A DNA stretch of 64,000 bases from a virus. Positions 2,862 through 42,604 of this stretch are shown here, piece by piece. The notes beneath the pieces are model-generated. The model saw only the letters and a program-made list of their open reading frames with translations, did no database searches and was not told where the DNA came from. Position numbers and translations under genes: made by a program. Position 1 is the stretch's first letter. Every line of letters starts with the position of its first letter. The stretch lies in the IMG/VR virus record IMGVR_UViG_3300043112_000040; one strand, 5' to 3'.

Positions 2862-3770
2862 CTACTCTCCTACAAAAATATTTACAGAATCACCAACAAC
2901 CTTAAACAAAGCATCCAAAGCAATCATGCGTTGTTCCACTTCTTCACTTTGTTCATCCTCTTCCACAATCATGGCTTCATCAACAAATCCATAAATAGAA
3001 TCAAAGTTTTTCATCTTGAACGAAGCATCATAATTCTTCATAACGAACTCAACTTCACTAAAAGAATAAACCTTTTCCAAAAGACTGTCAACCATTGATT
3101 CATCATCTACCCCGGCGAATTGTACCTTTCCCTCGCCATTGGCATCAATGAGCTTGTTATCGTTGCCAACAGAAATAAGATATTTCTCTTTGTTTCGATT
3201 ATCCCAAACATCAACAGCGAAGTGATGGAAATCTGTTTCATCTAGCTTTTCTGTGATAGGATATTCTTCAAAGTTATCAATAATCAGATTTTCAAGTTCT
3301 TCAATATCCTTCTTGCTAGTAGAAGAAATATAGCCATACCCATCTGTTTTATTGATATATACATCCAGATACTTTGGAATCGCTGGCATGTCCTTTAGCA
3401 GTTTGTTTTTGATAGCATTTTTAAGTTCTCGCTTCATATCCTTTGAAGGTTTATACTCTACAACTTCACCAGAATATTCATCAATTGTTTCATTCTGCTT
3501 GATAATCTTCTTGAGTTGTTTTTCAAATTCCTTGTTAAGTAAAGTACCTGGAACAGATCGTTTATCAATCCTAAGTTTGAGGGCAAGAATTTCTTTTCCA
3601 TTAGGATATGAATAGGAAGGAGTGATAGTAGAGCCTTCATATTCTTTTGTAAAATAATCAACAAATCCAGAACAAATCTCTGCACCCTCTACTGGAAAGA
3701 AAGCCTTGAATTTGTTGCTGTCATTGTCAAAATATCGAAACCGCGTGACGTTATTCTTCTTTCCAAACAT
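2862..3770 (-). CDS. rdgC: RdgC-like recombination-associated protein
   Basis: LRIDKRSVPG...ELKNAIKNKLL segment and ~300 aa length resemble RdgC. Confidence 0.6.
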   Translation of the reverse strand: MFGKKNNVTRFRYFDNDSNKFKAFFPVEGAEICSGFVDYFTKEYEGSTITPSYSYPNGKEILALKLRIDKRSVPGTLLNKEFEKQLKKIIKQNETIDEYSGEVVEYKPSKDMKRELKNAIKNKLLKDMPAIPKYLDVYINKTDGYGYISSTSKKDIEELENLIIDNFEEYPITEKLDETDFHHFAVDVWDNRNKEKYLISVGNDNKLIDANGEGKVQFAGVDDESMVDSLLEKVYSFSEVEFVMKNYDASFKMKNFDSIYGFVDEAMIVEEDEQSEEVEQRMIALDALFKVVGDSVNIFVGE

Positions 3771-37435: not shown

Positions 37436-37544
37436 TTATATATCTCCTTTATTTGTTTCTATTTAATCCTCAAAACCAATCTCTATATAACCGAGTTACG
37501 ATGATATGTCAAGCAACAAAGTTAAAAATCCACACAAAAAGTGA

Positions 37545-37580
37545 AAGCCCTTGCCTGAACTAAATCAAACAAGGGCTTTC
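37545..37580 (-). terminator. Rho-independent terminator after the tRNAs
   Basis: aaagcccttg...caagggcttt inverted repeat. Confidence 0.6.
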
Positions 37581-37645: not shown

Positions 37646-37738
37646 TGGTGGACATACCTTGAATCGAACAAGGGCTAACCGCTAATCTGGCGTTCGAGTT
37701 TATAAGACTCGTCGTGCTTCCAATTACACTATATGTCC
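37646..37738 (-). tRNA. tRNA with UAU anticodon (Ile-type) and a long variable arm, 93 nt
   Basis: GGACATA/TATGTCC acceptor stem, CGAGT-CTTATAA-ACTCG anticodon arm, 21-nt variable region, CCTTG-TTCGATT-CAAGG T arm, encoded ACCA. Confidence 0.85.
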
Positions 37739-37739
37739 G

Positions 37740-37815
37740 TGGTGCCGATAGAAAGATTCGAACTTTCACTTGACAGGGCTTAAACCTGTTGCCTCTTCCG
37801 TTGGGCTATATCGGC
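37740..37815 (-). tRNA. tRNA-Leu(UAA) with a short variable loop, 76 nt
   Basis: GCCGATA/TATCGGC acceptor stem, ACAGG-TTTAAGC-CCTGT anticodon arm, GAAAG-TTCGAAT-CTTTC T arm, encoded ACCA. Confidence 0.88.
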
Positions 37816-37819
37816 AAAA

Positions 37820-38152
37820 TTAGGTTTAAGGAATTTACACAAAACAGATCAAACCTAAAACCATCTGCTCGGAACGCTTCGTTTTAAAGGGTAACTGAGC
37901 TTAACCCATCTGAAATTTCAAGAGATAAATACCCACCTATTTATCTCGCAATCCACCCGAATACGCTAGCTTTGGATTGCTCCCATTTTTATTCACAACA
38001 CTGTCTATGCGTTTAAGACTCTCACCGAGCCTCCAGTAGATATATTAATCAGTTTTGACATACTGAACCCATCAAAATAGGGCAGGGATGTTACTGGACG
38101 TATGTTATGCCTCAGACAGTAAGGCGCGTCACCTTTCTTCCGCTGTTGTGAA
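37820..38152 (-). ncRNA. Highly structured non-coding RNA upstream of the tRNAs
   Basis: No credible ORF; promoter at 38157-38185; multiple long helices (TTCACAACA/TGTTGTGAA, CTGTCT/AGACAG, TCCAGTA/TACTGGA, GCAATCCA/TGGATTGC, GAGATAAATA/TATTTATCTC). Confidence 0.55.
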
Positions 38153-38156
38153 ATAT

Positions 38157-38185
38157 CTTATAACAAAAATTAAACTAAATGTCAA
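38157..38185 (-). promoter_or_regulatory. sigma70 promoter (ncRNA-tRNA operon)
   Basis: TTGACA-N17-TATAAG. Confidence 0.75.
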
Positions 38186-38189
38186 GAGA

Positions 38190-38281
38190 AATTTTGAGCC
38201 TTTTTGATTCTTGCTCAGGAATTGTAAATAATTGTTAGCGCAATCATTTACGGGGTTGTAGCCATTGTCGAGTGGTACATT
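38190..38281 (-). ncRNA. Putative ~90 nt small RNA
   Basis: Promoter TTGACT-N17-TATAAG at 38288-38316; 11-bp hairpin GTAAATGATTG/CAATTATTTAC; terminal TGAGC/GCTCA hairpin. Confidence 0.45.
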
Positions 38282-38321
38282 AAAAATCTTATAACAAAGA
38301 TCAAACTAAAAGTCAATAGAA

Positions 38322-38393
38322 AATTTGGGCGAATTTAACTACGTGGGTTTCGCCCGGACCTCGATAGAACCATCACCGCTTGGCAATGCTTTC
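38322..38393 (-). ncRNA. Putative ~70 nt small RNA
   Basis: Promoter TTGACA-N17-TATATA at 38400-38428; ends in a GGGCGAA/TTCGCCC hairpin followed by AAATTTT. Confidence 0.4.
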
Positions 38394-38424
38394 ATTCTTT
38401 ATATAACAAATGTTGAGGTAATTG

Positions 38425-38660: not shown

Positions 38661-39563
38661 TCAAGAAAAAACTTCACTTCTAATCTCATCAACTTTCTCC
38701 AAACCACATTCCCCTACATCCTTCATAACATCATCTTTATCCCAAATAAAAATATTAGTTTGAACACCTAACAAAGAAATCTTATTAGCAACATTCTCAG
38801 CCTGTACCTTACCGGGACCATCATTGTCAAACAAAACTGTCACCTTCTCAACTCCTTGCCTTTTCAGAAATGCTATTTGCTTATTTGTGACTTCAACTCC
38901 CATGGTAGCAATTGCCCCACTTCCAAACGTCCAGCGGTCCATTAAACCTTCCACAAGAACGGCATGAGAACCAACCTCGTCAATACCATACAAGCACTGA
39001 GCGGCAGGAATAAGAGAATCCTCGGCGGCGGCGTTTTTGTAGCGTATTTTTTCCTGCTTATATATTGTTCTGCCAACATAAGACGCAAGGATATTGTTCA
39101 TATAAATAGGAATAATAATTCTATACGCCCAATGAGGATTTAGATTTGTGAATGATTTCAGATCATAGCGAGTTTCTAAGTATTCTGGATCAAATCCTCT
39201 TTGTTTAAGATACTGCTTGTGTGGATTTTCCAAGTGATTAATCATGCCCATTGGGAATTTGAATGTTCCTTTTATTTGTTGGTGTTGGTAAGGTGTGAAA
39301 TCTTTTTTAGAATTTTTATATTCCTTGTAGACTTCTTTTATTGGTGCAGAGGATTGTTCTTTTACGTATTCATAAATGTTTGATTTAAAAGAACATACCC
39401 AACAGTGTGTAACTCCGGTGATTGTGTTTACACCATAGCAATTCCACGCCCTGCCACAAGAAGGACAAACAGGAAGACCAAGCCATCCTTTACCAACATT
39501 TTGTGATCCAGATTCTTGGTATGGAATATTGAATTTGTCAAGAAATGATCTGACGTTAATCAT
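38661..39563 (-). CDS. dnaG: DNA primase (DnaG-like; Zn finger plus TOPRIM)
   Basis: CPSC...HCWVC, VLVEGLMD and LFDND motifs. Confidence 0.88.
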   Translation of the reverse strand: MINVRSFLDKFNIPYQESGSQNVGKGWLGLPVCPSCGRAWNCYGVNTITGVTHCWVCSFKSNIYEYVKEQSSAPIKEVYKEYKNSKKDFTPYQHQQIKGTFKFPMGMINHLENPHKQYLKQRGFDPEYLETRYDLKSFTNLNPHWAYRIIIPIYMNNILASYVGRTIYKQEKIRYKNAAAEDSLIPAAQCLYGIDEVGSHAVLVEGLMDRWTFGSGAIATMGVEVTNKQIAFLKRQGVEKVTVLFDNDGPGKVQAENVANKISLLGVQTNIFIWDKDDVMKDVGECGLEKVDEIRSEVFS

Positions 39564-40162
39564 TATGTAATCCTTCTGGCAACTCTTGTTTTCTCATTAA
39601 CCAATCCAAGAATATAAGTATCTAAACTATCTGGTATATAATATACTTTTATAAGACATTCTTCTGCTTGTCCTACTCTATGGATTCTGTCTTCTGCTTG
39701 AGACATAACAATGGCTTCCCAATGGATTTCAGCTTGCAGCATAACATGAGATTTTGTCAGTGTCAAGCCCTCTTTACCTGCCCCATAACTAAGTATAATA
39801 ACTGGTCTTTTTCCAACTTGAAAACCTTTTACTGCTTTATCTCTTTCCTTAATATTTGTCTGACCTGTTATTACATAACAATCATTTCCGAAGTGCTTTT
39901 TATACTCTTTGACTACTTGATGGTGTTCAACGAATAAAACAACAGATTTATTTTCTTTAATATATAATTTTGCATCATTAATAACAGTGGGAACCTTTAG
40001 GAGTCCTAGGTCAATACGCAATCTAGCAATGGATTTGTCTGCTCGTAGTTTTGGTGGAATTTGATTTAACTTATTAAAAGAAGATAGACGAGTCAAGAAT
40101 TTTTTATTATCTTGCTTTATCTTTTCTTTATCAATTGTATTTTGGAAGAATGATTTATTCAT
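39563..40162 (-). CDS. SNF2-family helicase, C-terminal (HELICc) half
   Basis: VVLFVEH, ITGQT, GKEGLTLT and QAEDRIHRVGQ motifs. Confidence 0.88.
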   Translation of the reverse strand: MNKSFFQNTIDKEKIKQDNKKFLTRLSSFNKLNQIPPKLRADKSIARLRIDLGLLKVPTVINDAKLYIKENKSVVLFVEHHQVVKEYKKHFGNDCYVITGQTNIKERDKAVKGFQVGKRPVIILSYGAGKEGLTLTKSHVMLQAEIHWEAIVMSQAEDRIHRVGQAEECLIKVYYIPDSLDTYILGLVNEKTRVARRIT

Positions 40163-41120
40163 TTAGACTATATTCATTATTATTTGGTTTCATATATTTC
40201 TCAACTGCCCAATCAGGGATTTCGTGAGGATCAATTCCCTTATCATCCAAGTCTTGCTTAATCCTTTGTGAACAGGCAGCAATTTCATGCAAACCACAAC
40301 CGGGAAGTTTGTGAACTTTCTTATGACACTTCTTACATAACGTGATTCCGTTATCAACGTCATTACTAAGCATTGGATGAGTTGAGCCGGGATAAATGTG
40401 ATGTGCCTGTAAGCGGTGGGTTTCCCCGCAGATTTGGCACTTGTAGTTATCTCTTTCTAGGATTTTGTCTCTTATAAATTTGGGGAACTCTGTGCCAGTA
40501 GGTTTTGTTTTAAAACCTTTTGGATATTTTTGTTGTCTATATAATGAGCACTCTTGTTTGCATTTTTCTGAGCAATAAAGGCGAAGTTCTCCCATACCCC
40601 CATTTAGTGCTTTTATTCTATTTTGAACTTGTAGATTTGTTGGTATAAAATAATCCCTGCACGCTGAATTAGCACACTTAACTTCTAAATATCCATTTTC
40701 TGTTTCTCTTGGTTGTTCTTCTATAGTTAATTGATGACCAAATGTACTAAATAATGCAGGAGCTATTGCATATTCTTTTTTCTGTTCTAATAGATCATCT
40801 CGTTTTTCTATATAATATTCTTTTTGTTTGTTTATTATAGCATCTCGCTTTTCCATATAACGTTTTTTTCGGTATTTTAATCTATCTTCTCTATGATCTA
40901 TATGATATTCTTTTTTTTGTTCTAGAATATCATCTCGTTTCTCTATATAATATTCTTTGTGATATTTTTGATCACATTTTCTACATCTTGGTCGTATCCC
41001 CTTAAAACAAGCTTTTTGATTACTAAATTCCCACCAGTGTCTGAACCAACCACATTCAGTGCATATTTTTCCTCCCCATTCCCCATCAATATAATAAACT
41101 TTTCTTTTGTTATATGGCAT
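40155..41120 (-). CDS. HNH endonuclease, cassette 4 (type B), inserted between the SNF2 halves
   Basis: Near-identical C-terminal domain to 34586..35476. Confidence 0.88.
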   Translation of the reverse strand: MPYNKRKVYYIDGEWGGKICTECGWFRHWWEFSNQKACFKGIRPRCRKCDQKYHKEYYIEKRDDILEQKKEYHIDHREDRLKYRKKRYMEKRDAIINKQKEYYIEKRDDLLEQKKEYAIAPALFSTFGHQLTIEEQPRETENGYLEVKCANSACRDYFIPTNLQVQNRIKALNGGMGELRLYCSEKCKQECSLYRQQKYPKGFKTKPTGTEFPKFIRDKILERDNYKCQICGETHRLQAHHIYPGSTHPMLSNDVDNGITLCKKCHKKVHKLPGCGLHEIAACSQRIKQDLDDKGIDPHEIPDWAVEKYMKPNNNEYSLNE

Positions 41121-41125
41121 CTCTA

Positions 41126-41320
41126 TTAATCCTTTTCTTTAGATTGTTGTCGAATTTCGTGGACGGATGTTTTATTTCCATCTTTAAGTCCCATTCTGTT
41201 TTCCCTTGGTTTCCACCATATTTTAGATTTACAACGTGGACATATTTTAATATCTTTGTTGCGCGGGAACCATTCATAAGAACACCTTTGGCATATAAGA
41301 CCTTTAAGTGAATGTTTCAT
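41126..41320 (-). CDS. Small Zn-ribbon protein (cassette family B)
   Basis: CQRCSYEW...KICPRCKSKIWW; paralog of 35479. Confidence 0.75.
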   Translation of the reverse strand: MKHSLKGLICQRCSYEWFPRNKDIKICPRCKSKIWWKPRENRMGLKDGNKTSVHEIRQQSKEKD

Positions 41321-41345
41321 TCTACTAACCTCCTAGGTAAGTTGT

Positions 41346-41374
41346 ATTATAACAAGATTAATTCAAAAAGTCAA
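41346..41374 (-). promoter_or_regulatory. sigma70 promoter of cassette 4
   Basis: TTGACT-N17-TATAAT. Confidence 0.8.
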
Positions 41375-41482
41375 GTGTTATTTTGATTTATACTAAATGT
41401 TTTTTAATATTCGTATTTAAGTACCTAAAATTACTGACTTAAAATTTTCTTACTCGGAACTGAGATACTATATATGTATATA

Positions 41483-42604
41483 TTATATATTAACAGATAT
41501 GTATTCTACAGTCTTCTTCGGTAATTGTTCCAGCACTTGCCCTTTCTTGCGTCTAATATAGTAGTGCATCCTGAGTATTCGTCTCAACAATCTCTGATTA
41601 CTAAATCCTGTTGAGTCATAGCCATATTCTGTCTTAACTCGATTACAAAAAACATCCTCATAAAGAACTTTATCCTGCCAAACAAAATCAGGGTCTATCA
41701 GATAAAGCAAGAATCGCAAGTCCCTAATGTAGTTCTTAATTGCTGTTCCTGTCAACAACAAAGTAAACTTACTATTATGACAAATATCTTTTAATGTCCT
41801 TGCCCTCTTGCTGTTGTTGTTTGATATGTTATGGGCCTCGTCAACAATAACAAGATCAGGTCCAAATTGCAAGATGTTCTTCTTCTGCTTCGCTAAATTA
41901 TTAAAGTTGCAAATCAAAATTTCTGCCCCGTCGAGGTCCGAGGGTTTGGAATTTGCTGTTAATATATTCACTTGGGGGTTTGCGCGTGTGCCTTTATAGA
42001 ACTCTTGTTGCCAATTTTTTAAAAGACTGTTAGGTGTAACTACAATTGCTCGTGTCAAGTGTTTTTTTGGGTTTTTCTCAAAATATTTTACAAGTCCATT
42101 TTTGTCATTTGTCTTATTATAAGAAAACTTATTAGTAAATTGACAATCTAGTTTATCTTTATTAAACATGGAAAAGAAAGAATAAACACCAATAGCCTGG
42201 AATGTCTTGCCCAATCCGGCAACATCAGATAGCATACATCCTCTAAACCCCTGTTTATATCGTGTCAGAATCTCTTCTACGCCACTTTTCTGATATGGTA
42301 GGGGGGTCATATCATTTGAACAAGGAAAATCGAAATTAGAGGCAATAGAATCAAAATTTAGGGCATTGGCTTTTAATTCCCTGTAGTGTTCCCTCACATC
42401 TTTATATCGTGGAGATTTGAGCAAAGTAGAGGCAAGGGCAGGATAATACTTGAAAACGGCTTTATAAACCGTTTCCAGGTGAAATATTGGTATAATGTAG
42501 TCCTGATACTGTAGACGATATTGAACACCAAAAAGGGAAACTAGCTCTTTATGTAAAGGACTAATTAACCCTTTTTTTGGTAGGGATAGGGAGAAGGATT
42601 TCAT
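41483..42604 (-). CDS. SNF2-family helicase, N-terminal ATPase half
   Basis: LPYQKSGV, DVAGLGKT, IVDEAH, LLTGT, RRKKGQVLEQLPKK. Confidence 0.9.
   Translation of the reverse strand: MKSFSLSLPKKGLISPLHKELVSLFGVQYRLQYQDYIIPIFHLETVYKAVFKYYPALASTLLKSPRYKDVREHYRELKANALNFDSIASNFDFPCSNDMTPLPYQKSGVEEILTRYKQGFRGCMLSDVAGLGKTFQAIGVYSFFSMFNKDKLDCQFTNKFSYNKTNDKNGLVKYFEKNPKKHLTRAIVVTPNSLLKNWQQEFYKGTRANPQVNILTANSKPSDLDGAEILICNFNNLAKQKKNILQFGPDLVIVDEAHNISNNNSKRARTLKDICHNSKFTLLLTGTAIKNYIRDLRFLLYLIDPDFVWQDKVLYEDVFCNRVKTEYGYDSTGFSNQRLLRRILRMHYYIRRKKGQVLEQLPKKTVEYISVNI

Follow-up and report, generated by a model that had tools for sequence, protein, structure and literature searches.

A modular non-coding leader at the head of a tRNA unit in an uncultured phage

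Organisation of the tRNA unit

The 64,000-nt stretch of DNA analysed here in full (IMG/VR record IMGVR_UViG_3300043112_000040; hereafter the window) derives from an uncultured phage with a GC content of 36%, whose DNA polymerase finds its closest match in a cultured phage at just 24% identity. From position 1 to ~43 kb of the window all genes lie on the minus strand, and the RNA that had been flagged for follow-up is to be read on the minus strand as well, like both tRNAs and every neighbouring gene. Downstream of a primase gene (39563-38661, minus strand) lies an array of strong promoters of one type (TTGACA, 17 nt, TGnTATAAT-like), one of which, P4, leads into the tRNA genes. In the direction of transcription, the features are as follows:

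P1, minus strand: first promoter of the array, driving a 58-codon ORF
38428-38400, minus strand: promoter P2, driving sRNA-A (70 nt, terminator-ended)
38325-38395, minus strand: sRNA-A, ~70 nt, promoter-to-terminator, from promoter P2
38316-38288, minus strand: promoter P3, driving sRNA-B
38190-38285, minus strand: sRNA-B, ~95 nt, with an 11-bp hairpin, from promoter P3
38157-38185, minus strand: promoter P4, with -35 TTGACA (38185-38180), a 17-nt spacer ending in TGT (TGn extended -10) and -10 TATAAG (38162-38157)
37992-38152, minus strand: 5' domain (161 nt), a multi-branched fold with a 9-bp closing stem, found in this phage only
37948-37980, minus strand: hairpin H2, a 7-8 bp stem with conserved loop GCUAGCGUAUUCGGG containing the palindrome GCUAGC
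37922-37947, minus strand: hairpin H3, a 9-10 bp stem with conserved loop AGGYGGGK
37908-37921, minus strand: AU-rich single-stranded linker UUGAAAUUUCAGAU, which in relatives forms the leader immediately ahead of tRNA-Thr or tRNA-Lys
37820-37907, minus strand: M3, an H-type pseudoknot element of ~90 nt adjoining tRNA-Leu
37740-37815, minus strand: tRNA-Leu(UAA), 4 nt past M3
37646-37738, minus strand: tRNA with UAU anticodon (tRNA-Ile) and a long variable arm, 93 nt
37543-37580, minus strand: intrinsic terminator closing the tRNA unit

P4 fits a promoter consensus that is seen phage-wide (~15 other promoters in the window), which bears out the consensus promoter placed directly ahead of the RNA in an earlier note on this DNA. 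With a predicted transcription start near 38150, the unit reads, in order, 341-nt non-coding leader, tRNA-Leu, tRNA-Ile and terminator, for a precursor of ~610 nt. The transcribed strand of the leader holds no ORF of at least 30 aa, and the tRNAs and terminator follow on the same strand, so that the description of a non-coding RNA heading a tRNA unit stands. Folded whole and compared with shuffled sequences, the leader gives z = -1.13 and its 3' half z = -0.62.

The RNA had not been matched to a known family in the earlier note, and the Rfam search agrees: tRNAs were the only matches in the window at gathering threshold, whilst searches at E up to 10 (with 1.3 kb and with 351 nt) returned tRNAs and chance-level matches only, and no 6S, GOLLD, ROOL, tmRNA or ribozyme model matched the leader even at E up to 10. 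A blastn search with the region matched nothing but tRNAs in 50,697 phage records; when the leader was compared with the T5 tRNA region, no match fell below E = 2; ARAGORN at 85% and 70% thresholds placed nothing in the leader on its transcribed strand; and blast of the leader against the window itself yielded no second copy. Among the candidates rejected were the Lacto-3/Ref68 RNA (RF02840), which covered H2-H3 at 10.3 bits and E 6.9 against a gathering threshold of 44 bits and had no match in the counterpart from the relative L036, and the sole tmRNA call made by ARAGORN, a permuted artefact spanning the tRNAs.

Near-consensus promoters of a single type (TTGACA, 17 nt, TGTTATAAT), some 15-20 in number, are scattered over both strands of the phage, for example at 1265, 1485, 20650, 35745, 41374, 57468, 59869 and 61617. 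Such a phage-wide promoter type suggests that the host uses sigma70-type promoters and is not a member of the Bacteroidota.

Modules of the leader in related phages

Relatives were gathered through the adjacent primase, by way of IMG/VR, a protein search and the contigs encoding the matches (numbered here with the prefix L). Contigs encoding identical proteins (L019, L040, L041) are 100% identical in DNA. The closest relatives that are not identical, L020-L022, come from three different samples, carry a primase of the same 90% identity cluster and have flanking DNA 93-96% identical to the window; in more distant relatives the primase is 54-65% identical and pieces of the leader are shared in other contexts.

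Both hairpins in the middle of the leader recur with altered stems. In L004 the stem of H2 is changed in sequence yet perfectly paired, around an identical 15-nt loop. H3 is known with four different and perfectly paired stems (the window, L004, L001/L003 and L036), and in the relatives a tRNA (UAU, Thr or Lys) lies 12-24 nt downstream of it: H2 and H3 together precede the UAU tRNA in L004, and H3 stands before tRNA-Thr in L001 and L003 and before tRNA-Lys in L036. A T-box-like pairing of the H3 loop with tRNA 3' ends was considered and dropped, being inconsistent across relatives when compared by eye. Additional matches to the H2 loop in a pattern scan of IMG/VR were at chance level.

The earlier note had described four consecutive hairpins here. 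H2 and H3 are real and covary, whereas the remaining two are parts of a single pseudoknotted element, M3, made up as follows:

37907-37889, minus strand: P0, a small hairpin
Within 37888-37871, minus strand: conserved single strand AAAACGAAGCGUUCC, consensus AAAACRAAGYGUUCC, 15 nt, almost invariant
37870-37863 with 37849-37842, minus strand: stem S1, 8 bp
37858-37851 with 37827-37820, minus strand: pseudoknot, in which the S1 loop pairs with a downstream segment

Comparison of versions adds an optional extra hairpin to this architecture. M3 recurs in L003, L020-L022, L023-L032, L036 and L038, before tRNA-Leu or the UAU tRNA, and five distinct versions occur among the relatives. The S1 and pseudoknot pairings are kept across three unrelated sequences (UUAGGUUU/AAACCUAA, GCGGUU/AACCGC and AUUAUGGU/ACCAUAAU), and shuffling of the M3 tail reached the observed complement in 3, 34 and 1 of 5000 trials. 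Pairs in M3 and H3 were tabulated directly by script, since MAFFT alignments mis-registered the 3' strands. These compensatory changes show, at the level of sequence comparison, that H2, H3 and M3 are under selection for structure; the base for this consists of five distinct M3 and four H3 sequences, small counts that are also phylogenetically linked, as all come from a single small clade of uncultured phages. Covarying homologues, a check proposed in the earlier note, exist for these three modules, and only identical copies exist for the 5' domain. On this comparative evidence, H3 and M3 are two well-supported RNA motifs that are not catalogued.

By pattern scans of IMG/VR and GTDB, M3 is confined to this phage clade. 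Scanning 185,579 species genomes of GTDB for M3 gave 90 matches, about the chance expectation, none of them with the M3 flank, and hence neither a prophage copy nor a clue to the host. The IMG/VR pattern scans (H2 loop, UAU tRNA and M3) recovered only four contigs, all of them already found through the primase, and a metagenome scan with the tRNA pattern recovered one contig, already among the known relatives. The possibility that the M3 single strand pairs with the UAU tRNA was also dropped as inconsistent across relatives, again by eye. In L036, direct repeats of ~30 bp (AATAGTTTAGCCTGTTCTATTCAAAAACAGG; 3298-3330 and 3459-3490) flank M3, with a 99-aa HNH-type ORF adjoining (2921-3220), and these repeats suggest that M3 was inserted or duplicated by recombination.

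The modules do not travel together. L020-L022 are without ~390 nt that in the window comprise sRNA-B, P4, the entire 5' domain, H2 and H3, of which a residual H3 tail remains. At their junction (...AAAATTTCTCTTGA followed directly by AATTTCAG...) the upstream half of a promoter cassette runs into the final bases of H3 through a CTCTTGA common to both, and the gap looks like a deletion in the L020-L022 lineage at this microhomology; if so, the removed parts are dispensable. From H3 into M3, the window matches the tRNA-Thr leader of L001 together with the first 16 nt of that tRNA, up to the GGUUAnGCUCAGUU shared with M3, and the present leader looks like a former tRNA-Thr leader that became fused to an M3-tRNA-Leu unit. 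It is close to certain from these comparisons that the leader is a mosaic in which each of the linked modules has had its own evolutionary history, and the idea of one ornate RNA of ~330 nt, with which the analysis began, does not survive.

A type I hammerhead (RF00163) with a complete core lies at 3915-3963 of L023 and is also present in L024-L027, L030 and L031. In these leaders, homologous to that of the window, M3 lies upstream of it and a strongly folded 146-nt domain (z -4.41), followed by the UAU tRNA, downstream; its score is 31.7 bits (local E 3.6e-6), the gathering score being 34. L028, L029 and L032 encode the same primase protein as the L023-type phages, and the ~230-nt hammerhead insert is absent from them; the window itself has no match to the hammerhead model or to its core, CUGAUGA...GAAA. 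From the predicted hammerhead, present in L023-type leaders and absent in the L028 type, we infer that this phage group cuts its tRNA leaders between modules and that modules come and go.

With a hammerhead already present in the same leader of this phage group, M3 or another module might itself be a new self-cleaving ribozyme, or else a polymerase-modifying antitermination RNA, for phage tRNA operons; we consider this improbable. Like small ribozymes, M3 is compact and pseudoknotted and has unpaired nucleotides that do not vary, and it ends 4-5 nt before tRNA-Leu in three lineages (the window, L020 and L003), but across the relatives its distance to the tRNA ranges from 4 to about 230 nt. HDV-like theta ribozymes beside phage tRNAs, proposed to process the precursor at 3' trailers, have been published (PMC10879173), and M3 resembles them as a small pseudoknotted RNA right beside phage tRNAs; theta ribozymes, however, act on 3' trailers whereas M3 lies 5' of the tRNA, and the nested double pseudoknot of HDV (P1, P1.1, P2, P3, P4) differs from the simple H-type of M3, whose S1 loop has no room for P3. 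The want of any ribozyme family match at E up to 10 also speaks against self-cleavage. As for antitermination, the put RNAs of phage HK022 sit directly after promoters, and M3 likewise begins a few bases from the predicted transcription start in L003 and L023/L028; yet there is no internal terminator in need of read-through.

The 5' domain

The 5' part of the leader had been described as a domain of ~160 nt closed by a 9-bp stem around nested helices. Read on the minus strand, the minimum-energy fold contains the closing stem (38152-38144 paired to 38000-37992) as well as both nested helices, CUGUCU/AGACAG and UCCAGUA/UACUGGA, so that the helices stand at the positions first given for them; their support is nonetheless modest. 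Taken alone, the domain folds with z = -2.30 and two of 200 shuffles fold equally well, and 18% of shuffled leaders contain a perfect 9-bp stem. The centroid coincides with the minimum-energy structure, a multi-branch junction with four inner hairpins, and the GC content, 44% as against 36% for the window, is near tRNA level. Beyond the window, the domain is present only in the identical copies L019 and L040, which, being identical, carry no covariation information; it is missing from L020-L022 and all other relatives, and has no homologue in phage records, IMG/VR or the fetched loci. Its structure is accordingly a thermodynamic prediction with modest support.

The domain had been called 6S-like, with a decoy for sigma70 RNA polymerase in mind, and the whole might alternatively be one large ornate RNA of the GOLLD or ROOL type. 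6S RNA is a rod-like duplex, ~180-200 nt long, that opens into a large central bubble and ends in a terminal loop. The 5' domain shares with it (RF00013 and related) that it is non-coding, has its ends paired in a closing stem and contains internal loops, but its fold is multi-branched and not a rod with a central bubble, no 6S model matches it, and it is neither conserved nor present in close relatives, making it the sole part of the leader that comparison does not support. Large RNAs adjoining phage tRNAs do exist (PMC12286853); however, GOLLD and ROOL are longer than 500 nt with a conserved multi-domain fold, far above the 341 nt of a leader whose parts are inherited separately, and neither family matched at E up to 10. 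Both ideas now have next to no likelihood, and the 6S-like one should be dropped.

A rather unlikely but more serious alternative is that the 5' domain is functionless recombination filler in a hypervariable region rich in homing endonucleases, with an incidental fold. Its absence from the closest relatives, in three independent samples, the failure to find a homologue in any of the collections searched and the frequency of the 9-bp stem among shuffles all fit this reading, as does the H3-to-M3 junction, which itself resembles a tRNA-Thr leader fused to M3. Filler would not, however, be expected to have a strong promoter of its own, a GC content at tRNA-like level and a well-defined fold, with centroid and minimum-energy structure in agreement. 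It would also leave aside that L004 and L036 carry other structured segments, unrelated to it, at the same position. The counterpart domains of L004, L036 and L001, when folded, revealed no common architecture, and a relaxed ARAGORN search for decayed tRNAs in the 5' domain found none. On the reading that we favour overall, the domain is instead an accessory module, one that close relatives have lost, and possibly a 5' stabiliser: the predicted transcription start coincides with its first base or lies just a few bases away, and it would lock the 5' end of the transcript in a stem.

Closest known RNAs and likely roles

Stable RNAs from the tRNA regions of T5 and T4 provide, by analogy, the closest known kind. 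The T5 record (AY543070.1) annotates RNAX, RNA2H, RNAI, RNAIII, RNAIV and RNA1-3 as 'stable RNA with unknown functions'. Like the leader, these are non-coding; at ~70-720 nt they are interspersed with tRNA genes, HNH homing-endonuclease genes and numerous promoters, and RNAX (719 nt), between promoter P16-17 and tRNA-Arg, has the same layout as P4, leader and tRNA-Leu. They differ in having no sequence similarity to the leader and in having been seen experimentally as stable species, whereas the leader is known from sequence alone and consists of modules shared piecemeal with relatives. The T4 tRNA region gives rise to RNAC and RNAD (species 1 and 2 RNAs), for which no biological role is known (PMC3014915; PMC9697503). 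They resemble the leader as small RNAs from the tRNA region of a lytic phage, but the phage-record search found no homology between them and it. In T4, RNAC and RNAD stand at the ends of tRNA subclusters and not as a promoter-proximal leader. The leader falls in with these RNAs as a kind, and not as a sequence family, in that it is non-coding, heads a phage tRNA unit and shares its strand with promoter and tRNA.

On balance we favour a reading in which the leader of the ~610-nt tRNA precursor is made of independently folding and independently inherited modules, which give rise to processed pieces and in which H3 and M3 act in cis. Host RNase P would cut at the 5' end of tRNA-Leu (37816/37815) and free the leader; host endonucleases are likely to cut at the AU-rich single-stranded linkers that separate the modules, and it is at such a linker position that one relative has its predicted hammerhead ribozyme; released pieces could then persist as small stable RNAs, as those of the T5 and T4 tRNA regions do. 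For H3 and M3 a role in cis is the most likely one, affecting how the precursor folds, how stable it is or how it is processed: every relative that carries them has them in tRNA 5' leaders, and in several M3 stands at the transcript start. This role is read from their position only. Any single cis model fits the L020-type phages poorly, since M3 there comes after a terminator and lacks a good promoter of its own. The functional part of this explanation is much less certain than the mosaic nature of the leader. It comes close to the deflationary view, already allowed for in the earlier note, of an RNA that is only a processed leader, yet the 3' modules covary.

Trans action by the modules is less likely, although it deserves some weight: they would be small regulators, decoys or anti-defence RNAs for which the tRNA precursor is a vehicle of expression and processing, with the M3 single strand AAAACGAAGCGUUCC and the loops of H2 and H3 as interaction surfaces. 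Consistent with this, conservation in the loops and in the 15-nt single strand far exceeds that of the stems, and sRNA-A and sRNA-B are stand-alone RNAs, promoter to terminator, in the same array; the hammerhead of the relatives would free M3 as a separate RNA, and RNAs of this sort accumulate in T5 and T4. The position of the modules right at tRNA 5' ends is explained equally well by a role in cis. A bolder combination is to our minds a long shot: M3 with H3 would form a new functional RNA class of phage tRNA operons, either self-cleaving or nuclease-directing and so setting tRNA 5' ends independently of host processing, or polymerase-modifying, and the 5' domain and H2 would be exchangeable cargo acting in trans during infection.

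Extra stable RNAs of phage tRNA regions (T4 RNAC and RNAD, T5 RNAX and others) have been known for decades and their roles are still unknown. At present the leader is a modest addition to this recurring pattern. It does offer a small and tractable case, with two uncatalogued motifs, the H3 hairpin and the M3 pseudoknot, that show clear compensatory changes and are tied to tRNA 5' leaders, with natural deletion and swap variants, and with a relative that has a hammerhead at a module boundary. Were M3 or H3 found to direct the processing or stability of the precursor, the association of such RNAs with phage tRNAs would have an explanation.

Several observations concern the neighbourhood of the leader. 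sRNA-A is conserved in L001 (92%), L004 (83%), L020-L022, L035 and L036, with a 5' hairpin and a terminator stem that change in sequence and keep their pairing (GGGCGAA/UUCGCCC vs GGGAGU/ACUCCC); it carries an invariant UCUAUCGARGUCC and matches no Rfam family. sRNA-B (fold z -3.39, reached by 0/200 shuffles) occurs in this phage only and is lost in L020-L022 along with the 5' domain. The long-armed UAU tRNA is 90-98% identical across phages with primases 54-65% identical, far above its surroundings, and L020-L022 have in its place a short-armed, low-scoring UAU tRNA (25.5 bits). Between promoter and UAU tRNA in L001 (5700-5815) there are T-arm-like pieces and the 3' end of a tRNA-Leu that is intact in L003 (...GACTCCCGCCGCCGCTAG), and the stretch appears to be a decayed tRNA gene. 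Upstream of the primase in the window, an SNF2 helicase (39563-42604) is split around an HNH gene; in L020 (1095-2874) the helicase consists of two ORFs (373 and 198 aa) with the HNH gene absent, and in L033 (567-2222) it is one protein of 551 aa.
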